Shown in pieces: positions 41,881-52,380 of a DNA stretch of 64,000 bases. A program made the translations under genes and the position numbers. How positions within the stretch are numbered: the first letter of the stretch is position 1; each line of letters starts with the position of its first letter. Location of the stretch: the NCBI GenBank assembly GCA_035506175.1, contig DATJPZ010000103.1, positions 16,579 to 80,578 on the forward strand, written 5' to 3'. The notes below the pieces were generated by a model, which searched no databases, was not told the DNA's origin, and saw nothing but the letters and a program-made list of their open reading frames with translations. The stretch is from Thermoanaerobaculia bacterium (GTDB lineage Bacteria; Acidobacteriota; Thermoanaerobaculia; UBA5066; Gp7-AA6).

Positions 41881-42926
41881 TGCCGTCGTGGCTCGCCGCG
41901 CTCGTGCTGGGCGCCGCGCTCGCCTACGAGCCGACGGTCGCGACCGTCGAACGCCGCGTGGCGTCGATGGGCACGACGCTCGATCTCGTCGTCCGCATGA
42001 AGTACCGCGCGCAGGCCCTCGACGCATCCGAGGCCGCGCTCGCGGAGGTCGTCCGCGTCGAGAGCCTTCTGACCACGTGGAAGCGGGGCGGCGAGCTCGA
42101 CCGGATCGACACCGCTCCCCCGGGGCAGTCCGTGGCCGTCTCTCGCGAGCTCGTCGACCTGCTCGCCAATGTCTTCGACTGGGTCCCGCGGACCGGCGGC
42201 GCCTTCGACCCGACGGTGGCGCCGCTGATGCGCGCGTGGGACCTGCGCGGCAAGGGCCGGATCCCGGCGGCGGCGGAGCTTTCGGCCGCGCGCGCCGCCG
42301 TCGGCGTCGCGAAGTTCCGACTGGACCCGTCGCGGGCGACGGTGACGCGTCTCGAGGCTGCCGCCGGGATCGACGAGGGCGCCTGGGGCAAGGGCTACGG
42401 CCTCGACCGCGCGGGCGCGGTGCTGGCGAAGGCGGGGGTCCGCAGCGCGCTCCTCGACCTCGGCGGTCAGGTGCTCGCGATCGGGTCGGACTCCGGCGAG
42501 AAACCCTGGCGCGTGCCGGTGGCCGACCCGCGCGACCGCGCGCGCACGGTCGCCGAGCTCGGCCTCGCCGACCGCTCCGCGGCGACCTCCGGCGACTCGG
42601 AGCGGTTTCGCGAGGTCGACGGCCGGCGGATCGGCCACATCCTCGATCCCGCGACGGGCGAGCCCGCCCGCGACTTCGGCTCGGTCACGGTCGTGGCCTC
42701 CTCGGGCCTCCTCGCCGACGTCCTGTCGACCGCGCTCTTCGTGCTCGGTCCCGAAAAGGGCCTCGCCCTCTCGGAGAGCCTGCGCCGCCAGGGAGTGGAC
42801 AACGAGGTTCTCTTCCTCGTCGTCGGCCGCGAGGGCCTCGAGGCCGCGGCCAGCCCCGGCCTGTCTTCGTTCGTCCTCTCGGCCAACACCCGCGCGGTGC
42901 GCGGCCTCCAGCCGTCCACGCCCTGA
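41880..42926 (+). CDS. ApbE-family FAD:protein FMN transferase
   Basis: TGATG overlap with the upstream stop. MGTTLDLVV...GGAFDPTVAPL...AWGKGYGLDRA...SGDSERF...HILDPATG. Confidence 0.85.
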   Translation: MPSWLAALVLGAALAYEPTVATVERRVASMGTTLDLVVRMKYRAQALDASEAALAEVVRVESLLTTWKRGGELDRIDTAPPGQSVAVSRELVDLLANVFDWVPRTGGAFDPTVAPLMRAWDLRGKGRIPAAAELSAARAAVGVAKFRLDPSRATVTRLEAAAGIDEGAWGKGYGLDRAGAVLAKAGVRSALLDLGGQVLAIGSDSGEKPWRVPVADPRDRARTVAELGLADRSAATSGDSERFREVDGRRIGHILDPATGEPARDFGSVTVVASSGLLADVLSTALFVLGPEKGLALSESLRRQGVDNEVLFLVVGREGLEAAASPGLSSFVLSANTRAVRGLQPSTP

Positions 42927-42955
42927 CCCCCGCAACCGAGGAGGAAAAAACCGAA

Positions 42956-44398
42956 ATGCGATCCCTGTCACGGTTCCTTCTGTCCCTGGTCCTCGCTCTC
43001 GCCGCCGCGGCGGCCGCGCACGCGCAGGCTCCCGCCGCGCCTTCGCCGGACCCGTCGACCCTGTCGCCCGAGGAACGCCTGAAGACGCTCGAACGGCTGC
43101 TCGCCGACACGCGGGCCGAGCTCGAGAAGCTCAAGGCCTCGTCCACGGCGGCCGACACCAACGCGAAGCTCGAGGAGCTCTCCCGCCGCATCGACATCCT
43201 GGCCAGGGAGATCGAGAGCCTCAAGATCGGCGAGGCCGCCCCCGAGATCGAGGCGGGCTCCAGGTCCGGCGAAAAGTCGGTCGAGAAGTACGGCATCGGT
43301 CCCGCCGCGGCCCGCGTCTACGGGATCAAGAAGGGTCTCTCGATCGGCGGCTACGGCGAAATCCTCTACAGCAACTACGCGTCGAAGGACCAGAGCGGCG
43401 CGCCTTCCAGCGGCGAGGACGTCATCACGGACCTGCGGGCGGTGCTGTATCTCGGCTACAAGTTCGACCAGCACTTCGTCCTGAACACGGAGATCGAATA
43501 CGAGAACGCGGTGGTGGCCTCCGACAAGGGCGGCGAGGCCGAGGTCGAGTTCGCGTACATCGACTACATGAACTCGCCGGCGTTCAACGTCCGCACCGGC
43601 CTTGTCCTGATCCCTTCGGGCCTCGTCAACCAGCTCCACGAGCCGACCGCGTTTCTGGGAGCACGCCGCCCGGACGTCGACGAAGTGATCATCCCGACGA
43701 CGTGGCGCGAGATCGGCACCGGCTTCTACGGCACGTACGGCCCGGTCTCGTACCAGTTCTACGGGGTCAACGGCCTGAACGCGGCCGGGTACACGGCGGA
43801 CGGCGGCATCCGAGAAGGGTCCGGCGAGGGCTCCGAGGCGCTCGCGAAGAGCTGGGCCTTCGCGGGCCGCGTCGACCTCACCGCGGTGCCGGGCCTGCTC
43901 GTCGGCGCCTCCGTCTTCTCCGGCGACGCGGGCCAGGGACAGTTCACGCCGTCGGGCGAGAAGATCAGCGCGCTCACGACCCTCGTCGAAGGGCACCTCG
44001 ACTGGCGCTGGCGCGGCCTGTGGCTGCGGGGCCTTTACGCGCACACGACGATCGACCAGGCCGAGCTCATCAACCAGCTGAACAACTTCGAAGGCGACGA
44101 ATCGGTCGGCAGCAGGCAGGAAGGCTGGTACGGCCAGCTCGGCTTCGACGTTCTCTCCCTGGTATCCGGTTCCCGGATGAACCTGATCCCGTTCGCGCGC
44201 TACGAGCAGTACGATACGCAGGCTCAGGTTCCCGTCGGTTACGAGCGAAATCCCGAAAACGACGTCCACGGCTGGACCCTCGGCGCCGTCTTCCAGCCGA
44301 TTCCGCAGCTGGTTCTCAAGGCCGATTGGCAGCAGCGTCACAACGCCGCGCAGACCGGAGTCAATCTTTGGAACGTCTCGCTCGGGTACGTTTTCTAG
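42956..44398 (+). CDS. Outer-membrane porin-like beta-barrel with N-terminal coiled coil
   Basis: GAGGAGGA upstream. Signal peptide. Coiled-coil LKTLERLLADTRAELEKLK.... C-terminal ...NLWNVSLGYVF. Confidence 0.7.
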   Translation: MRSLSRFLLSLVLALAAAAAAHAQAPAAPSPDPSTLSPEERLKTLERLLADTRAELEKLKASSTAADTNAKLEELSRRIDILAREIESLKIGEAAPEIEAGSRSGEKSVEKYGIGPAAARVYGIKKGLSIGGYGEILYSNYASKDQSGAPSSGEDVITDLRAVLYLGYKFDQHFVLNTEIEYENAVVASDKGGEAEVEFAYIDYMNSPAFNVRTGLVLIPSGLVNQLHEPTAFLGARRPDVDEVIIPTTWREIGTGFYGTYGPVSYQFYGVNGLNAAGYTADGGIREGSGEGSEALAKSWAFAGRVDLTAVPGLLVGASVFSGDAGQGQFTPSGEKISALTTLVEGHLDWRWRGLWLRGLYAHTTIDQAELINQLNNFEGDESVGSRQEGWYGQLGFDVLSLVSGSRMNLIPFARYEQYDTQAQVPVGYERNPENDVHGWTLGAVFQPIPQLVLKADWQQRHNAAQTGVNLWNVSLGYVF

Positions 44399-44403
44399 GG
44401 AGC

Positions 44404-44937
44404 GTGCGCTTCGTCGTCGCGGCGGTGGGCCTGCTCGCCGCGGCGGCCGCCGGCGCCAGGGTCTTCCTCACGCGGGAGGAAGCGCTGAGGCTCGCCTTCC
44501 CCGGCGCCGCCGTCGAGCGCCACACCGCGTACCTGACCGAGGCGCAGCAGAAGGCGGCGCAGAAGCTCTCGGGCGACGCCGAGCCACCTTCGGCGCTCGC
44601 GTCGTACGACACGGGGACGAAGGACGGCCGCCTCGTCGGTACGGCCTACTTCGATACGCACACCGTCCGGACGATGCCCGAGACGATCATGGTCGTCGTC
44701 GATCCCTCGGGCGCGATCGCCCGCATCGAAGTGCTCTCCTTCTCCGAGCCCGAGGAGTACCTGCCGAAGGCGCACTGGTACGAGCAGTTCCAGGGCAAGC
44801 CCCTCGACGACGAGCTCTCGATGAAGCGCGGCATCCGCGCCGTCACGGGAGCGACGCTGACGGCGCGCGCGACGACCGACGCCGCCCGGCGCGTCCTCGC
44901 CCTCCACAGGGTTCTCCAGGGAGACGCGAAGCCATGA
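44404..44937 (+). CDS. FMN-binding domain protein (NqrC/RnfG-like, membrane anchored)
   Basis: N-terminal anchor. ...IRAVTGATLTARAT contains the [ST]GAT flavinylation-type motif targeted by ApbE. Confidence 0.7.
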   Translation: MRFVVAAVGLLAAAAAGARVFLTREEALRLAFPGAAVERHTAYLTEAQQKAAQKLSGDAEPPSALASYDTGTKDGRLVGTAYFDTHTVRTMPETIMVVVDPSGAIARIEVLSFSEPEEYLPKAHWYEQFQGKPLDDELSMKRGIRAVTGATLTARATTDAARRVLALHRVLQGDAKP

Positions 44938-45371
44938 AGCGGTGGGAGGCCTGGTGGAATCACGCCGCGCTCGCGGCAATCTCGCTGACTGGCCTCGCTT
45001 ACGGCGTCTTCAAGTACTGGATCCCGAGCCCCGATCCGGACTCCCGGGCAGGACATCCCCTGCAGCCGGGCTTGATGAAGGCCCACCTGCTGGTGGCGCC
45101 CTTCGCGGTCCTCGGCATCGGGCTCCTGCTCCGCCGACATGCCCTGGCGCGCCTCGAGCGCGGCGAGCAGAGCGGCCGGCAAAGCGGCCTGACGATGTTG
45201 TGGATCTTCCTTCCCCTGGTGCTGACCGGCTACCTGCTCCAGGTCTTCGTCGCGCCGGGCGCCGTCCACGTCACCGGCTGGATCCACGCCGGCCTCGGCC
45301 TCGTCTTCGCCCTCGGCTACGTCTTCCACCCCAAGCGGAAGGCGGCGGCCAACGGCAACGGCGAGGACTGA
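44934..45371 (+). CDS. Four-TM His-containing membrane protein (possible b-type cytochrome-like, DUF4405-like)
   Basis: ATGA overlap with the FMN-binding gene. Four hydrophobic helices with His in or near the helices (KAHLLV, WIHAGL). Confidence 0.55.
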   Translation: MKRWEAWWNHAALAAISLTGLAYGVFKYWIPSPDPDSRAGHPLQPGLMKAHLLVAPFAVLGIGLLLRRHALARLERGEQSGRQSGLTMLWIFLPLVLTGYLLQVFVAPGAVHVTGWIHAGLGLVFALGYVFHPKRKAAANGNGED

Positions 45372-45387: not shown

Positions 45388-46557
45388 TCACTTCACGGCG
45401 AAGGCCTCCGGCCGCTGCTGGAAACGGTCGCGGCAGGCCGGGCTGCAGAAGTAGTAGATGCGGCCCGCATAGAGCTGTCTCAGGGGGTTCGCGTCGGCGA
45501 CGACGGCCATGCCGCAGACCGGATCGACGGCAGCCTCCGCTTTCGCGCCGCCGGGCGAGGCTCCCGCAGAAGGCGCCTCGGGCTTCATCGTTTCGATGTA
45601 GGCCGCCAGCTGCGTGACCTGCGCGTCCGTCAGTTGTCCGCGATAGGACGGCATCATGCGCGGATAGCCGGCGGCGATTTTTGCGTTCGGATCGAGGATC
45701 GACTCGCGCACGTAGGCATCGTCGAAGACGGCCGATCCGCCGCCCTCGAGGGCGACCCGGCCGCCCATGCGGCCTCCCAGGGCGGGCGCCACGCGCGCCT
45801 GGCTATGGCAGGCCGCGCAGCCGGCGGATACGAAGAGGACCCGGCCCGGCCGGCCCGTCTCGTCGGCCGCCTCGGGGACCGCCGGCTCTGAGGCGAGCCG
45901 GGGAATCTCGGCGCCCGGCGCTCCATCCAGGCTCAGGGCGTCCCGGACCAGCCGCTGCAGCGACTCGGTCTCTCCGCTGTCGTACACGCCGCGCACGCGC
46001 CCCTCCTGGTCGGTCAGGACGAAGAGCCCGGAGTGCTGTACCGAACCGTCCGGGTCCGGCGGTTTCACGAAGACCTTCATCCCCTTCGCCGTCGCCATCA
46101 GGCCGTCGGCGTCGGTGCGGAGAAGGCGCCAGCGCGAGCCGTCCACGGCCCAGAGGTCGGCGTATTGCCGCAGGATGGCCTGGGTGTCCCGGCCGGGGTC
46201 GACCGAGAACGACACGAATCGAACGCCCGGACGCGCGATGGTTCGGGCGAGCTCGCGCATCCGGGCCGTCATCATCGGGCAGATCGACGTGCAGCTGGTG
46301 AAGAAGAAGTCGGAGATCCAGACGTGCCCGCGCAGCTGGTCGCTGCCGAACGGGCGCCCGTCCTGGTCCGTGAAGGCGAAGGCCGGAGCGTCCCAGAGCA
46401 CCGGGAGCTCTCGAGGACCCGGCGGCTGCGGATTGTGCGCGGCCCGCTCGGCCTCGCCGAATCCGCTCTCCTGGCGATCCGATCGGACGATGACCACGAT
46501 GCAGACGGCGGCCAGCACGACGAGCCCGATACCGGCCGCGAGATGTTTCATGGGCAC
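45388..46557 (-). CDS. Sco1/SenC copper chaperone fused to a cytochrome c domain and a C-terminal YHS/TRASH-like domain
   Basis: TM anchor. Sco1 CTSIC (CxxxC) and ...HSGLFVL. CAACH haem site. C-terminal DPVCGMAV...YYFCSPACRDRF. Confidence 0.8.
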   Translation of the reverse strand: MPMKHLAAGIGLVVLAAVCIVVIVRSDRQESGFGEAERAAHNPQPPGPRELPVLWDAPAFAFTDQDGRPFGSDQLRGHVWISDFFFTSCTSICPMMTARMRELARTIARPGVRFVSFSVDPGRDTQAILRQYADLWAVDGSRWRLLRTDADGLMATAKGMKVFVKPPDPDGSVQHSGLFVLTDQEGRVRGVYDSGETESLQRLVRDALSLDGAPGAEIPRLASEPAVPEAADETGRPGRVLFVSAGCAACHSQARVAPALGGRMGGRVALEGGGSAVFDDAYVRESILDPNAKIAAGYPRMMPSYRGQLTDAQVTQLAAYIETMKPEAPSAGASPGGAKAEAAVDPVCGMAVVADANPLRQLYAGRIYYFCSPACRDRFQQRPEAFAVK

Positions 46558-46761: not shown

Positions 46762-47127
46762 TCAGCCGAGGAGGGGGACCTTGTCGGGAATGAGGGCGGG
46801 AGGAAGCGGGAGCACGGAGTCCAGGACGAGCGCGTGACGCCCCGAGAGCGCGGGTAGAGTCAGCAGCAGGCCGGCGCACAGGAGCATCGGCAGCGCGGCC
46901 GGAAGCGGCACCGCGTCGCCGTCGTGGGCGCAGGACGAGAGAGTCGGCAGGGCGGCTCCGTGCCCCATCGGGCAGCAGGCGGCGCCCTTCTCGGCGGCCA
47001 TGCCGGCGCGCGCGCAGGCGAGCGCACACGTTGTCGCTGCCGTGTCGGCGGATGCGGCCGCGGCGAGCCTTGTCCCGAGCGCCGCCCCGAAGACGAGCAG
47101 CCCGAGAAGGGCAGCATTCCGACGCAT
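46762..47127 (-). CDS. Cys/Met/His-rich putative metal-binding membrane-anchored protein, paralog A (121 aa)
   Basis: Signal peptide. CALACARAGM, CCPMGHG, SSCAHDGDA and a C-terminal hydrophobic segment. Start at ATG 47127, chosen by alignment with paralog B. Confidence 0.6.
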   Translation of the reverse strand: MRRNAALLGLLVFGAALGTRLAAAASADTAATTCALACARAGMAAEKGAACCPMGHGAALPTLSSCAHDGDAVPLPAALPMLLCAGLLLTLPALSGRHALVLDSVLPLPPALIPDKVPLLG

Positions 47128-47181
47128 CGTGGCCATTCTATGGGTCAGGCCCAAGCGCCACGCCGGACGAGACGGAGCGGA

Positions 47182-47706
47182 TCACGGTGCGGTGCTCGAT
47201 TCCCGATGGCGTAGCAGCGGAGCGACGGTATCTTCCAGCTGCTGCATGGTGACGGGCGCGCCGGCCGCCAGTCGCGCGCGCACGATTCCCTCCCGGTCGA
47301 TCACGTAAGTCACCGGGAGCAGGCGCACCGCTCCGAAGCCGTTGCTCGACGCCTCGGCCGCGATCGCGACCGGATACGTCACCCCCTGCATGGACTTCTG
47401 GATGGCACCCCTCTCCCGAGGACGGTTGACGGAGAGTCCGACGATTTCCAGGCCGTTGTCGTGCTGGGCCCTGTAGAACTCCTCCAGGATCGGCGCTTCC
47501 TGACGGCACGGCTCGCACCAGGTCGCCCAGAAGTTGACGAGAACGACCTTGCCGAGCTGCTGCTTCAGGTCGAAGGTCTTGCCGTCGAGCTCGGACACCA
47601 CGAGCGCGGGAGCGGGCTGCCCCACTTCGATCGTGGCCGCCCCGAGCGGGGCGGCCACGACAGCTACAGCCAGAGCGAACCATCCCCGAGCAGCGTGCGT
47701 CTTCAT
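47182..47706 (-). CDS. TlpA-family thiol:disulfide oxidoreductase (thioredoxin fold)
   Basis: Signal peptide. VLVNFWATWCEPCRQE (CxxC). Confidence 0.85.
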   Translation of the reverse strand: MKTHAARGWFALAVAVVAAPLGAATIEVGQPAPALVVSELDGKTFDLKQQLGKVVLVNFWATWCEPCRQEAPILEEFYRAQHDNGLEIVGLSVNRPRERGAIQKSMQGVTYPVAIAAEASSNGFGAVRLLPVTYVIDREGIVRARLAAGAPVTMQQLEDTVAPLLRHRESSTAP

Positions 47707-47715
47707 CGCGGGCTC

Positions 47716-48666
47716 CTAGAAACTGTAGCCGATCGAGAACTTGTAGTACTCCTTGGACACGAGCTGGTTCCCGTTCATGTTCTGGTAGACCGGAAATCCA
47801 ACCTGCGCGAACACCTGGATGTCGGAATACGTGAATTGGATCGCCGGCGCGATGAGCACGCGCGTGAAACCCGTGTTGTCCGGGTCGGCTTCGTCCCCGG
47901 TGTCCCGCCAGCGCTGCGAGAAGAGGACCGTCAGAACCGGTGCGATCGACGACTTGCTCGAAAGCTGGCCGGCGTTGAAATAGACCCCGGCCGCGAGGTC
48001 GACTTCGTCGCCCGGGCGATACCCGTTGCGCCACGTGAGTGCGTTGTCCCACAAGACCTGAGCGAACCACGCCCAGCTGTTGTCCCTGGTCAGGCTCCCC
48101 TGGTGATAGCCGCCGACCAGCGAGTTGACGCTTCCCGTCCCGATTTGATTGTCCCGGTCGGGTCCGGGGTAGGTGTAGTCCCCGGTTGGGAGCTTGAGTC
48201 CGAACGTGACCCCGGTGCACATGTCTTCCGAGAAACCGGAATAGACACCGGTCAACCGGATGTCGCCGAGGCTGGTGTAGTGATAGGCGGCAAGTTCCCC
48301 GTCGTCGGCGGTCAGAAAATAGCGATTCCAGACCGGCACGTTGGCCAGCACGCCCCACTTCGTGTTGAACATGTACTGGAAGTTGGCATTGTAGAAGTTC
48401 GTCCGGATCTGCTTGTCGTCGTTGTCTTCGGCGGGGGCCTTGGAAGTGCCGCTCCAATTCTGGTTCTGGTTCATGTAGTCGTACTCGAAGGAAGCGAACC
48501 CTCCGACCTGGATCGGACGCATGAGCCCCGATCCGACTTCGAACACGCCGCACCCGCAGGCGCAGGCCTTCGCCCGATCCGGGAAGGCGATGAAGGCTAC
48601 GAGACCGAGGATCATTCCGACGCAAACGGCGACACGGCGCCGCCCGAAACGCGATGGACTCTTCAA
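47716..48666 (-). CDS. Outer-membrane beta-barrel protein with N-terminal CACGCG cysteine motif
   Basis: Signal/TM, then AKACACGCGVFEVG. Tyr/Asn/Gly-rich strands. C-terminal ...KFSIGYSF. Confidence 0.7.
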   Translation of the reverse strand: MKSPSRFGRRRVAVCVGMILGLVAFIAFPDRAKACACGCGVFEVGSGLMRPIQVGGFASFEYDYMNQNQNWSGTSKAPAEDNDDKQIRTNFYNANFQYMFNTKWGVLANVPVWNRYFLTADDGELAAYHYTSLGDIRLTGVYSGFSEDMCTGVTFGLKLPTGDYTYPGPDRDNQIGTGSVNSLVGGYHQGSLTRDNSWAWFAQVLWDNALTWRNGYRPGDEVDLAAGVYFNAGQLSSKSSIAPVLTVLFSQRWRDTGDEADPDNTGFTRVLIAPAIQFTYSDIQVFAQVGFPVYQNMNGNQLVSKEYYKFSIGYSF

Positions 48667-48704
48667 GATGCGCTCCTTTCTCTTTGCCGACCGGAGTGAC
48701 CGAG

Positions 48705-49070
48705 TCAGCAGGGTCGGAGCGGCACCTTGTCGAGCAGCCGGGAGGGAGGGAACAGGATCGCGAGAGGCGCGCCGGACGGGCGGCGGCGCGTGAGAGACGG
48801 CAGCGGAAGCACCAGTGCCGCGAGCAGGAGCATCGGCCCGATCGCGGCGGGAACCGGCGCGGCGTCACCGTCCCGGGCGCACGAGGAGAACGACGGGCCG
48901 CCGCCGTGCCCCATCGGGCAGCAGGAGGCACCCGGCCCGACTCCCATGCCGGCGCGGGCACAGGCTAGCGCGCACCGCGCGGTCGGCGAGTCGCCGGCGG
49001 AAACCGCCAAACCCGCCGCGAGCGGCGCGACGAAGGCGATCAGGGCGAGCAGACCGGCTTTTCGGCGCAT
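48705..49070 (-). CDS. Cys/Met/His-rich putative metal-binding membrane-anchored protein, paralog B (121 aa)
   Basis: ATG 49070 (MRRKAGLLALIAF...). Same CALACARAGM / CCPMGHG / SSCARDGDA / DKVPL blocks as paralog A. Confidence 0.6.
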   Translation of the reverse strand: MRRKAGLLALIAFVAPLAAGLAVSAGDSPTARCALACARAGMGVGPGASCCPMGHGGGPSFSSCARDGDAAPVPAAIGPMLLLAALVLPLPSLTRRRPSGAPLAILFPPSRLLDKVPLRPC

Positions 49071-49086
49071 TCGGATCGATTCTACC

Positions 49087-49140
49087 GGGGTCAGGTCTCT
49101 CAAAGAGCGTTCTTGAATCACCGTTGAGAGACCTGACCCC
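49087..49140. repeat. Perfect 17-bp inverted repeat (hairpin) with 20-nt loop
   Basis: GGGGTCAGGTCTCTCAA (49087-49103) and TTGAGAGACCTGACCCC (49124-49140). It lies between the adenosyltransferase stop and the start of paralog B. No flanking U-tract on either strand. Confidence 0.85.
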
Positions 49141-49144
49141 GAGG

Positions 49145-49708
49145 TTAGGCCCGGCTGTCCCACAGGATGTCGCGGACTCCGCGACTCCGGTTCTCGTGGC
49201 GCGCCATGACGAAGAGCGCGTCGGAGAGGCGGTTCAAGTACCGCACCGTCCAGGCGCCGACGGCCTCCTTCCGCGACAACGCGACGACGAGCCGCTCGGC
49301 GCGCCGGCACACCGTCCGCGCGACATGGAGCTGCGCCGCGCCGGGCGACCCGCCGGGGAGGATGAAATTCTCCAGCGGCGCGAGCTTTTCGGAGAGCCGG
49401 TCCATGAGCTTCTCGAGCGCCACGACGTGGCGCTCCTCGATCCGCGGCACCGGCCTCTTCGCCTTGTCCTCTTCCGGCATGCAGAGGTCCGAGCCGAGGT
49501 GAAAGAGCTCGTTCTGGATCGTCGCGAGAGGCCCCGCGAGCGCCTCGCTCAACCCCGACGCGAGCGCGACGCCGACGACGCTGTTCAGCTCGTCGACCGT
49601 GCCGTAGGCCTCGATGCGGAGCGCGTCCTTGCCGACGCGCTGGCCGCCGCCGAGGCCCGTCGTCCCGTCGTCGCCCGTGCGCGTGTAGACCTTCGTGATG
49701 CGCGGCAT
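49145..49708 (-). CDS. PduO-type ATP:cob(I)alamin adenosyltransferase
   Basis: [14 protein letters not shown]...[13 protein letters not shown]...NFILPGGS...[12 protein letters not shown]. Confidence 0.9.
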
Positions 49709-49718
49709 GCTCTTCCGG

Positions 49719-52028
49719 CTAGAACTTTACGTCCAATCCCGCCGAGACCAGGCGCCCGGCCGCCGGATACCCCGCCGCCTCCTCGTAGGCGTGGTTGGTT
49801 AGGTTGATCGCCCGCAGGTACGGCGCGAGGAGGGTCGTGATCTGCCAGCGCGCGACGAGATCGACGCGCAGGTACGACGGGTCCGTGATCGGCGCGCCGG
49901 TTCCCGGGTCCGCGTCAGCGCGCGAGCCGACGTAAATCAGGCGCGGCGACAGGTTCAGCGCCGGAATCGGCATCCAGCTGAACCCGAGCGAGGCGCCGTT
50001 GTTCGGCCGGCGCAGGAGCGGGCCGCCGGTCTCGAGGTCCTCGGTCTTCAGGTACATGTACGTGACGTTGACCGCGAGCTCGGGGAGGACCGACTGCTGC
50101 CAGCCGAGCTCCGCGCCGTACGTGCGCGCGCGCCCGACGTTGTAGTTCCGCTGGGTCGTGAAGTCGTAGACGATCAGGTCCTTCAGGTCGTTCCAGAACA
50201 CCGAAACCTCGGCCTTGCCATTGCCGAAATAGCGCTCGGCGCCCACCTCCGCCGAGACCGACTTTTCCGGCTGCAGGTCGGGGTTGCCCGAGAACGGGTA
50301 GTAGAGCTCGCCGAGCGAGGGTGCGCGGAAGCCCGTGCCGCCCGAGGCCCGCACCTTCCAGAGCTTGTCCGCCGACAGCCAGCTCACCGTGCCCCGCGGG
50401 CTCCACGCGTCGCCGTAGGTCGTGTAGTGGTCGTAACGCAGGCCCGCCGTCACCGTGAGCGCTCCGAGCGCGACGGTGTCCTGCGCGCCGAGACCCCAGA
50501 GCGTCGTCCGCGCGTCGTCGAGGTTGATCCCGAAGTTCGACGCGTCGTCGACCTTCCAGCGCTGCCATGACCCGAAGGCGGTCAGCGTGTGGTCGCCGAG
50601 CCTGGCCGTGTCGGACAGCGTCGCCTGGAAAGTGCGCGCGTCGGTCTGGGACTCGAAGCCGCCCGCCGTGTCGCGGTACGCCGGCTCGGATTGGACGCCG
50701 GCGAGGACGACGTCGAGATGGTTGTCCTCGGACAGCGTGAAGTTGCCGGGCACCGAGACGCGCGACTCGTGCGTGAAGCCGCGCGCCGACGAGGGATAGC
50801 CAAAGCCGCCGATCGCGCCGGGGTTCCCGACCTCGCCGTCGTCGAGTCCCCACTCGACGCCGACCCGGCCGACGTCGCCGAGGCGCGCCTGGAGCGAGGC
50901 CGAAGCGTTGCGCTCGCGCCAGTCGGTGTTGGGCCCCACGCCGTTGTAGGCCATGTACCGATAGCTGGCGGACGCCGAGAACGGCCCCTCGCCCGCGGAC
51001 ACGAACGCCGAGCCCTGGCCCTGACCCTGGTTGCCGGCGTCCCCGGTCAGCCGCGCCGACGCGCCCTCGGAGCCGGGGCGCGTGAAGATCTGGACGACGC
51101 CGCCGATCGCGTCGGAGCCGTAGAGGGCCGAGTAGGGACCGCGGGCGATCTCGATGCGGTCGATGTTCTGCGTGGTCATGCCCGCCCAGTCGTAGCCCGA
51201 GAAGTACGGCGAGTTCATCCGCACGCCGTCGACGAGCACGAGCGTCTGCGTCGAGTTCGTGCCGCGCGTGAAGAGCGACGTGAGCGACCCCGGCGTTCCG
51301 TACTGCGTCACGTCGAGCCCCGGCACCGAGCGCAGGACGTCGGACACGACGGTGGTCTCGTGCTTCTCGAGCTCCTCGCGCGTGATCACCGTGATCGCGG
51401 AGCCGACGTCCTTCTCGTCTTCGGGCACCGAGGTCGCCGTGACGACGACGCTCTCGGAGGCCGGCGGAGGCTGTTGCGCGGACGCGGGGAAGGCGAGGAG
51501 CAGGAGCGCCGCGCCGAGGACCGCCGCCGAGAGCACGCGCTCGCGCCGCGAAAGCGCGTCGAGGCCGAAGAGCACCGCCGTGCCGAGCAGATCCGCGAAC
51601 AGGGTGTTCCAGAAGAACGGCACCCCGGCGACGTAGCACGCGACGAGCCCCGCCGGCGTCTTGGGGTACGGAAGAGAGAGCCAGGCCATGAAATTCGACG
51701 TGAGGAAAAAGCCGACCGCGGCTCCAACCGAAAAAGCCGCCAGGCGCGGCGCGCCGGCCCGGGGCGAAAGGAAACGGCCGGCGAAGACGATCGCGGCGAA
51801 CGTCAGATAGATGACGACGCGGCCGGCCGAGAATGCGGGGCGGCCGGTGCCGAAATCGAGAAAGAAGTCCGACAGCGCCATCGCGCCGAGCGGCACGGCC
51901 CACGCCCACCGGCGCGGCAGCCGTGCTCCGGAGTAGAGCGCGATCGCGCCGAGGGCGACGAAATTCGGAGGATGGGGAATCAGGCGGGAAAGAGCGCCGA
52001 GAAGGACCAGCAGAACCGCGGTCGCCAT
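49719..52028 (-). CDS. Single ORF: DUF6580-like polytopic membrane domain fused in frame to a BtuB-like TonB-dependent receptor
   Basis: GGGAGG upstream of ATG 52028. Residues 1-160 are hydrophobic ([19 protein letters not shown]...). Then a receiver-type signal peptide ([20 protein letters not shown]; candidate internal GTG at 51536), a TonB box/plug (SVVVTATS...), a 22-strand-like barrel, and terminal ...SAGLDVKF. No stop codon separates the two parts. Confidence 0.8.
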
Positions 52029-52134
52029 TCGAACCTCCCGTTCGATCCGACGAAGATCTCGGGCAGTTCGAAAGGCGTCCCGCGCTCCGGAAAGTCGGAA
52101 GACGCGCCCCTCTCGTGGAACCCCGTCCGAGAAG

Positions 52135-52310
52135 CGTGTCGTCCGGCAGGTCTCCTGGCTTCCGGATCTTCCGCCTTCGGGCTCCTTCCCGGGAGCGCGA
52201 CCGGCTCTTGCCGATCTCTCGCGCCCAGTGGATTGCCGCCCGAGGCGTCCCCGGTGACAGTGGCGGGGGCCGCGCGGGATTTTCACCCGCTTCCCTTGGC
52301 CGAACGAATC
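52135..52310 (-). promoter_or_regulatory. Cobalamin (B12) riboswitch aptamer
   Basis: Minus strand reads GGGAAGCGGGTGAAAATCCCGCGCGGCCCCCGCCACTGT...CCACTGGG...CGGGAAGG...AGCCAGGAGACCTGCC (B12 box at 52145-52160). A closing helix forms between TCGTTCGGC (52299-52307) and GCCGGACGA (52139-52147). Confidence 0.88.
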
Positions 52311-52380
52311 AAAGAGCCGATTGAGGAGCCGAACCATAACTCCGCCGCAGTCGGCGATCAAGGGCGTTCGTGCCAGCGGA

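Follow-up and report, generated by a model that had tools for sequence, protein, structure and literature searches.

What is the role of two paralogous, cysteine-rich open reading frames (ORFs) that lie on either side of the genes for a predicted outer-membrane barrel and a TlpA-like redoxin? This question is raised by a stretch of 64,000 nucleotides with a G+C content of 70% from a Thermoanaerobaculia bacterium (Acidobacteriota; GenBank assembly GCA_035506175.1, contig DATJPZ010000103.1, positions 16,579 to 80,578), which as a whole is called the window here. The two ORFs, smallA (46762-47127) and smallB (48705-49070), are located on the minus strand and encode 121 amino acids each. In an initial annotation, which had been made from the DNA sequence alone, a role in copper trafficking was proposed for them. 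The present analysis retains the link to copper, which is supported by gene context, and leads away from a stable copper carrier. We propose that smallA and smallB are exported leader ORFs that sense a metal, most likely copper, and that they resemble the regulatory ORFs CutF and CruR without detectable sequence similarity to either of them. In our judgement this reading is probably correct, and it is put forward with moderate confidence.

A family with five cysteines and a fixed C-terminal motif

The two window proteins share 53% identity over 120 amino acids (BLASTP, E=2e-21), and all sequence blocks that had been noticed initially are present, namely CALACARAGM, CCPMGHG, SSCA(H/R)DGDA and DKVPL near the C-terminus. 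In smallB, an apparent signal peptide is followed by C33xxxC37, C50C51, C64 and D114-K-V-P-L118, after which three residues and the stop codon complete the ORF. The corresponding positions in smallA, which is identical to the NCBI protein P0150, are C34xxxC38, C51C52, C66 and D115-K-V-P-L119. The C-termini read ...PLPPALIPDKVPLLG in smallA and ...FPPSRLLDKVPLRPC in smallB. By inspection, the N-terminus consists of MRR(K/N), a hydrophobic stretch of about 18 residues and an A-x-A-like site; AlphaFold2 predicts a helix at residues 2-26.

By combining word-indexed, exhaustive phmmer and profile searches, about 74 distinct family members were found at 90% clustering, and the two genes are conserved. 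The proteins are 79-156 amino acids long, mostly 116-125, and all members with a source name come from Thermoanaerobaculia. The hidden Markov model of the family matches loci only in Thermoanaerobaculia or Acidobacteriota, each time directly 5' of a barrel gene; the search for related loci from a narrower family alignment comprised 10 loci. The family had not been recognised at first sight and, indeed, smallA and smallB have no Pfam match at E<=1 and no NCBIfam match, and a scan of 16 family members returned nothing meaningful. Three subfamilies can be distinguished by the patterns CALACARAGM...CCPMGHG...SSCA...DKVPLLLG, CAIACGHA...CCPMS...KTC...LDHVPLLFG and CAMACHRG...CCLLGAD...ASC...PDPVPLALS. 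The invariant positions are five cysteines (CxxxC, CC and C) and the C-terminal V-P-L, with CxxxC being present in 72 and CC in 73 of the 74 members. Judged by this pattern, it is plausible that the five cysteines bind a thiophilic metal.

During the searches, the phmmer match P0016, a 667-aa repeat protein, was discarded as a compositional or repeat artefact. The name MYXO-CTERM, under which P0015 is listed at JGI, was also discarded because there is no NCBIfam match (TIGR03901) and the hydrophobic stretch, which lacks conservation, precedes some 25 residues that are conserved. Moreover, a precursor of a ribosomally synthesised and post-translationally modified peptide, or of the bufferin type, was considered and discarded; DUF692/MNIO and DUF2063 genes are not among the annotated neighbours.

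The C-terminal [D/E]xVPL is the strongest conservation in the family. In the form [DE]x[VI]P[LI] it occurs in 72/74 members, and in 63/69 members exactly four residues separate its proline from the stop codon. The distance from the fifth cysteine to the motif proline amounts to 53±1 residues in 68/69 members (range 51-54), and the linker between the cysteine cluster and the motif has been kept in length while its sequence has diverged. The invariant proline is encoded by all four codons (CCG, CCC, CCT and CCA), the valine by GTG, GTC and GTT and the aspartate by two codons. Since the pairwise ratio of nonsynonymous to synonymous substitution rates (dN/dS) is about 0.3 across the family and synonymous codons vary even at the invariant proline, the ORFs appear to be translated and the motif to be under selection as a peptide. 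An internal D-(A/G)-V-P-L-P, which resembles the C-terminal D-x-V-P-L, stands right after the fifth cysteine in smallA (residues 71-76; window ~46900-46917), in P0010 and in L032.

Structure prediction bears on the question of whether the small proteins could be stable carriers. With the family alignment as input, AlphaFold2 yielded no globular fold (predicted local distance difference test, pLDDT, 62; predicted template modelling score, pTM, 0.28), and the predicted helices are the putative signal peptide, a short one over CxxxC and a hydrophobic one. The hydrophobic C-terminal segment that had been described initially is present in both window ORFs, but it does not hold as a family feature: the maximal 19-residue Kyte-Doolittle mean is about 2.0 in close relatives and 0.6-1.4 in distant ones, and the transmembrane-like stretch is missing from two of the three subfamilies. 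It has to be considered that the proteins are periplasmic or inner-membrane-anchored Cu(I) chaperones that pass copper among the barrel, TlpA and Sco, with DKVPL serving as a docking motif. This explanation draws on the five invariant cysteines together with methionine and histidine in a stretch of about 35 residues, on the transmembrane-like helix followed by arginine residues in close relatives and on the nearby Sco, TlpA and PCuAC genes. However, the lacking fold, the loss of the transmembrane-like segment and a linker that is kept in length only make it unlikely. Chaperone and sensor roles are not mutually exclusive and may be combined.

Predicted coupling of the small ORFs to the downstream barrel gene

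In 15/15 non-redundant units with downstream sequence, a barrel gene on the same strand starts 38-46 nt past the stop codon of the small ORF, the barrel gene of smallA being a remnant. In the case of smallB, the downstream gene encodes a barrel of 316 amino acids (47716-48666, minus strand) and has a TTG start codon. A stem-loop is predicted at 48664-48728 (minus strand; z=-2.87), in which the K-V-P-L codons of smallB (48728-48717; AAGGUGCCGCUCC) pair with GGAGCGCAUCUU(G), that is, with the Shine-Dalgarno (SD) sequence GGAG (48676-48673) and the TTG start codon (48666-48664) of the barrel gene. The inner hairpin of this structure spans the smallB stop codon. A consensus structure computed with RNAalifold has the same architecture in units with the window-type barrel (type 1) and in those with its paralogue barrel2. 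The calculated probability of the barrel SD sequence being unpaired is 0.00 in 15/15 units, and its partner is mostly the P-L codons. As a control, 20 window genes with a GGAG SD sequence were evaluated; the median probability was 0.31, and only the barrel gene was below 0.01. The predicted mRNA structure occludes the downstream ribosome-binding site and overlaps the putative arrest site.

None of 16 family starts has an SD sequence, and in all 16 cases TAGAAT, TACAAT, TAGATT or TGGAAT ends 6-10 nt further 5'. In the window, the -10-like hexamer TAGAAT is found on the minus strand at 49079-49084, 8 nt 5' of the smallB ATG, and at 47135-47140, 7 nt 5' of the smallA ATG. The small ORFs are probably located on leaderless mRNAs. 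There are only 10 TA[GC]AAT sites in 128 kb (both window strands), and because this rare hexamer mostly sits 7-9 nt before ATG or GTG, leaderless transcripts seem to be common in the source organism. The sites include window positions 2892, 29775, 31810, 36195 and 52381, and most of them precede a start codon without an SD sequence. ORFs that are probably leaderless and always come first in their unit, and motif codons that are predicted to double as an anti-SD sequence, are further points against a stable chaperone.

From the anatomy, the conservation, the synteny and the predicted RNA pairing, we infer a ribosome arrest, its ligand and the direction of regulation. According to the proposed mechanism, each small ORF would be transcribed from its own promoter into a leaderless mRNA, and its product would be exported co-translationally through Sec. 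When the ribosome has reached the [D/E]-x-V-P-L codons, four to five before the stop codon, the five-cysteine cluster would be at least 53 residues back and newly periplasmic, because about 53 residues roughly span the ribosomal tunnel and SecYEG. The state of the cluster (metal-free, Cu(I)-bound or oxidised) could then alter how strongly the nascent chain is pulled and thereby how long the ribosome dwells on the motif. A ribosome dwelling on the K-V-P-L codons would melt the helix and free the SD sequence and the start codon of the barrel gene, which could then be translated. The product of the regulated gene would be a FapF/COG4313-like 12-stranded barrel that carries CxCGCG at its N-terminus and probably serves as a copper channel of the outer membrane; the co-encoded TlpA-like reductase would keep the barrel thiols reduced. 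In the window, smallB would control the intact barrel-TlpA pair, and smallA, the barrel of which has been deleted, now lies 5' of the Sco fusion. It is a guess that the system serves acquisition and is expressed under copper scarcity; an acquisition role is favoured in view of the genes that accompany the barrel, namely TlpA, Sco and PCuAC, all of which function in the assembly of cuproenzymes.

The barrel and its genomic neighbourhood

Two units can be recognised in the window: smallB-barrel-TlpA is intact, and smallA-Δbarrel2, which is followed by Sco, has decayed. In the 5' to 3' direction of the minus strand, the order is cobalamin riboswitch, TonB-dependent receptor, PduO, smallB, barrel, TlpA-like redoxin, smallA and Sco1 fusion. 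The neighbours are those that had been named initially. The redoxin (47182-47706, minus strand) is a TlpA/ResA-like periplasmic thiol-disulfide oxidoreductase with a WCEPC motif and an AhpC-TSA match (7.5e-21), and the Sco1-cytochrome c-YHS fusion (45388-46557, minus strand; SCO1-SenC 9.6e-22, YHS 4.6e-12) is the first intact gene 3' of smallA.

For the barrel, AlphaFold2 predicts 12 strands (pLDDT 79.5, pTM 0.74), with the cysteine-rich N-terminus being of low confidence. The predicted barrel comprises about 290 residues, and the N-terminal segment is positioned as a plug in the lumen. The motif C35-x-C37-G-C39-G-x-F-x-V, just past the predicted signal-peptide cleavage site, is invariant in 40 aligned barrels. 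The barrel family has more than 1831 matches, its members from Acidobacteriota and from Proteobacteria share about 50% identity, and it has no Pfam match, neither to PF13557 nor to any other family. The best structural matches in the PDB are FapF (5o65, 5o67) and the COG4313 channel 4rl8, with template modelling (TM) scores of about 0.6-0.7 at 13-16% identity. When the barrel alignment was used as a profile against the PDB sequences, no match had an E-value below 0.08, and a literature search for COG4313 and copper found nothing relevant. The family appears to be uncharacterised and is a candidate for a new outer-membrane copper channel with a FapF/COG4313-like fold.

The presence of the amyloid-secretion channel FapF among the best matches (5o65, 5o67; TM 0.6-0.68) and the strict 1:1 pairing of small ORF and barrel would also suit the idea that the barrel transports the small protein as its cargo. 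A cysteine-rich peptide, for instance an unmodified copper scavenger, would then be secreted via a FapF-like channel, and DKVPL would be the secretion signal. However, the uptake channel 4rl8 (COG4313) matches equally well, barrel orthologues elsewhere are paired with DUF2946 regulators and the barrel has an invariant cysteine motif of its own. Furthermore, secretion as cargo would leave the 53-residue ruler and the anti-SD pairing unexplained, and we regard it as very improbable.

Two barrel paralogues, which are about 28% identical, occur in the units of the family. The N-terminus of barrel2 carries ACSMCRCSDPVF, and intact barrel2 genes are found in relatives (L001 10414-11343 and L003 6636-7553). 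In the window, smallA is followed by a 42-nt spacer and a 40-codon ORF (46719-46597, minus strand; MNCRHARRRLAAAVF...DIQPACGAGLTYVF*), which is an in-frame deletion remnant of barrel2. Over its first 50 nt it shares 90% identity with the intact gene of L001, and its C-terminus ...DIQPACGAGLTYVF matches ...DIKPAYTAGLTYVF; about 15 amino acids are left per terminus, and roughly 270 are gone. The identical remnant is present in the independent metagenome assemblies L028 and L029. By this comparison, barrel2 is the former target gene of smallA that was lost to deletion. Thus, smallA is no true exception to the pairing of small ORF and barrel because its barrel2 survives as a remnant. The layout that had been seen initially, with the two small ORFs flanking the barrel and TlpA, does exist, but it is partly accidental as the barrel belonging to smallA has been deleted.

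Barrel neighbourhoods were also compared in 23 loci from other organisms. A TlpA-like redoxin is encoded directly 3' of the barrel in loci of Acidobacteriota, Gemmatimonadales, Binataceae, Anaeromyxobacteraceae, delta-proteobacteria, Magnetospirillum and others. Sco-like genes are present 3' of the barrel in L014, L024 and L007, a PCuAC gene adjoins it in L005 and L019, and a CusF-like gene does so in L016. This gene context supports a link of the barrel unit to copper.

Among the partners of the barrel, the TlpA-like reductase is conserved best, which would also suit a thiol-redox sensor. In such a sensor, the arrest would be released or prolonged by a force arising from disulfide formation in the emerging cysteine cluster, and the expression of the cysteine-bearing barrel and of the TlpA-like reductase would be tuned in response. 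The anatomy would be identical to that of a copper sensor. However, the wider context (Sco, PCuAC, CusF and DUF2946) is specific for copper, and CxxxC, CC, methionine and histidine form a typical set of Cu(I) ligands, which makes a redox sensor rather improbable. Both readings may be coupled because copper binding needs reduced thiols.

It could also be supposed that the unit is part of a cobalamin or cobalt uptake operon and senses or carries cobalt or a corrinoid. The cobalamin riboswitch (52128-52319, 93 bits), the TonB-dependent receptor (49719-52028) and the PduO-type adenosyltransferase (49145-49708), all on the minus strand, lie directly 5' of smallB. In most of the Thermoanaerobaculia loci examined, the small ORF either follows PduO immediately or is separated from it by a BtuF-like gene only. 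However, a near-perfect 19-bp hairpin without a U-tract (49087-49140, minus strand; -40.2 kcal/mol, z=-6.6) is located between the PduO stop codon and the smallB promoter. Its stem is kept in L001, L030, L032, L035 and L037 with differing loops, and it may act as a terminator or as an insulator. Because of this hairpin and the separate -10 box, control of the smallB unit by the B12 riboswitch is judged unlikely, and the unit is probably outside its reach. Moreover, outside Thermoanaerobaculia the barrel never adjoins B12 genes and adjoins copper genes instead, and the cobalt- and nickel-linked CutF-like proteins are histidine-rich and not cysteine-rich (PMC9973294). Membership in a cobalt or cobalamin system is therefore very improbable.

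Some further features of the locus differ among relatives. The orthologous TonB-dependent receptor of L003 has an N-terminal DUF6580 membrane domain, and relatives have Diphthami_syn_2-like and BtuF-like genes near PduO, which the window does not have. A conserved convergent cluster (window ~41900-45371, plus strand; L003 9530-15034) encodes ApbE, an FMN_bind protein, a porin-like protein of about 478 amino acids with an N-terminal coiled coil and a multi-pass membrane protein of 145 amino acids. CCP_MauG and TIG-domain genes are added to this cluster in relatives, and it accompanies the barrel locus in several of them. It may encode a flavin reductase system of the periplasm or envelope; a link to copper reduction is speculative.

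Comparison with CutF, CruR and other arrest peptides

Over the past years, copper-sensing exported upstream ORFs (uORFs) such as CutF and CruR have been described (2022-2025), almost all of them in Proteobacteria and Bacteroidota and tied to RAPP or poly-proline. CutF and DUF2946/CruR have been characterised experimentally as copper-responsive uORFs with a signal peptide, a cysteine motif and a C-terminal arrest motif (PMC9426467, PMC9973294, PMC12992588). For instance, the CruR (DUF2946) uORF Bp2923 of Bordetella brings about copper control of a downstream transporter by CXXC and RAPP, the latter being located 45 residues further on and three residues before the stop codon (PMC9426467). Arrest of CruR at RAPP has been demonstrated in vitro (PMC12992588). 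In the case of CutF, a stem-loop that hides the SD sequence of cutO is melted (PMC9973294; bioRxiv 10.1101/2025.02.05.636593). The effect of copper differs between the two: with CutF it raises stalling, and with CruR it relieves the stall. A proteomic analysis did not detect the CruR protein (PMC9426467), and CutF is quickly broken down once it has been exported (PMC9973294).

The same regulators are met upstream of the barrel in other phyla. In non-Acidobacterial loci, the ORF directly 5' of the barrel encodes a small exported cysteine protein, the C-terminal motif of which is rich in proline (RAPP, RGPP or QAPP). Seven of these ORFs, from Alphaproteobacteria and other proteobacterial metagenome-assembled genomes, match the Pfam family DUF2946 (E 2e-9 to 0.15), and the barrel-upstream ORFs of L014, L016, L024, L025 and L027 contain cysteines and a C-terminal PP. 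Since DUF2946 ORFs precede the orthologous barrels elsewhere, the Thermoanaerobaculia family appears to fill the slot of a known class of regulators. The different occupants suggest that the sensor peptide has been replaced repeatedly among lineages. This slot, together with the fate of the CruR and CutF proteins mentioned above, also counts against a stable chaperone. Thus, a metal-sensing regulatory nascent peptide fits better than a chaperone because of the C-terminal motif, the linker kept only in length, the anti-SD pairing and the slot, and of the initial proposal it is the link to copper that stands. Unclassified cysteine-rich ORFs also occupy the slot in L025 (3474-3839, Candidatus Xenobia) and L016 (4896-5369, Gemmatimonadales); examples of slot-ORF sequences are ...CSCCSKGGCCCG...RPPNLFPL and ...CQCRGMMGNGHHVCFCPLC...SPPPRSRRS.

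Several observations weigh against a metal-sensing arrest peptide. First, D-x-V-P-L is no known arrest motif and contains neither RAPP nor a poly-proline run; PP is present within the last 15 residues of both window ORFs, but only in 50/74 family members. Second, an in silico ribosome-footprint mask centred on the proline codon frees the SD sequence only partly (0.01-0.63), and covariation in the stem is weak, with 1-3 compensatory pairs. Sparse covariation may be explained by both arms being constrained already by the coding sequence or the SD sequence. Third, the transmembrane-like segment of close relatives would suit a membrane-anchored protein as well. Finally, PF11162 (DUF2946) matches none of 16 family members even at E<=10, and hhalign of the family against a DUF2946-like alignment, which consists of only 7 sequences and has limited power, gave a probability of 1.3% over 24 columns.

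Known motifs near the stop codon other than RAPP are NSP-stop, NAP-stop and DGMK-stop (PMC10987492, PMC10951233), and [D/E]xVPL is unreported among arrest sequences. A more far-reaching claim would be that of a convergent ligand-sensing arrest peptide with a non-RAPP, non-polyproline [D/E]-x-V-P-L-x3-stop, a five-cysteine sensor exactly 53 residues away and motif codons that form the anti-SD sequence. It would gate cysteine-plugged 12-stranded copper channels of the outer membrane, a widespread and previously unrecognised family of more than 1800 homologues that has no Pfam entry and would work together with its own TlpA-like reductase. We regard this claim in full as tentative and somewhat doubtful. 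If true, the repeated evolution of this kind of regulation would be demonstrated by an Acidobacterial family that shares the anatomy but neither the sequence nor the motif, and ribosome biochemistry would gain [D/E]xVPL as a further candidate for an arrest sequence. Of greater value as a lead may be the barrel family and its TlpA-like partner. The barrel family is a concrete candidate for the TonB-independent pathway by which copper crosses the outer membrane, a pathway that is poorly understood. In earlier synteny surveys of DUF2946, AhpC_TSA genes were recorded in the operons; the barrel would escape such surveys because neighbours were counted by Pfam domain and the barrel has none.

The likeness to CutF from the Rhodobacter capsulatus cutFOG operon extends to several features. 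With 121 codons each, both window ORFs stay below the limit of 150 in the rules for CutF-like proteins (PMC9973294); in accordance with these rules, PP occurs among their last 15 residues and a neighbour on the same strand lies within 1000 nt, and the signal peptide was assigned by inspection. The portion of the supplementary list of that study considered here holds no entry from Acidobacteria and no matching motif. Like CutF, the small proteins have CxxxC, a proline motif at the extreme C-terminus and an apparent Sec signal peptide; they are encoded by the first gene of a copper-related unit, and a short intergenic region and a predicted stem-loop hiding the SD sequence of the next gene follow. 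In contrast to CutF, to which there is no detectable sequence similarity, they contain three cysteine blocks (CxxxC, CC and C) instead of one and end with [D/E]xVPL-x3-stop instead of PPP. Moreover, the anti-SD arm lies within the motif codons and not in the intergenic region, and the regulated gene would encode an outer-membrane barrel instead of a multicopper oxidase. A leaderless mRNA is probable for the small ORFs, and their host is a member of the Acidobacteriota.

With CruR/Bp2923, the family shares the nature of a putatively exported uORF with a cysteine motif at a fixed distance from the C-terminal motif (45 residues in DUF2946, 53 here), the position of this motif 3-4 residues before the stop codon and the location at the head of copper-acquisition operons with Sco, PCuAC and AhpC_TSA-type genes. 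In addition, DUF2946 ORFs hold the identical slot 5' of orthologous barrels. Unlike CruR, the family is not Pfam DUF2946 and has no RAPP. The DUF2946 arrangement of CXXC and RAPP about 45 residues apart was not found in the family, which has CxxxC, CC, C and [D/E]xVPL at 53±1. Furthermore, 38-46 nt of intergenic sequence with sequestration of the SD sequence are found here, whereas in CruR 162 nt with Rho-dependent termination are involved.

The exported nascent chains SecM, VemP, MifM and ApdA/ApdP also combine a C-terminal arrest motif with a defined spacer, and their arrest exposes a downstream ribosome-binding site (PMC10987492, PMC10951233); for smallA and smallB, this likeness is read from the sequence. 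In contrast to the family described here, these peptides monitor translocation and not a periplasmic ligand, have no cysteine cluster and control other target genes. Finally, the barrel resembles the COG4313 and FapF channels (4rl8, 5o65) by its predicted 12 strands and the plug-like position of its N-terminal segment, and it differs from them by an identity of only 13-16%, by its own invariant N-terminal C-x-C-G-C-G-V-F motif and by the genetic coupling to a TlpA-like reductase and copper genes.

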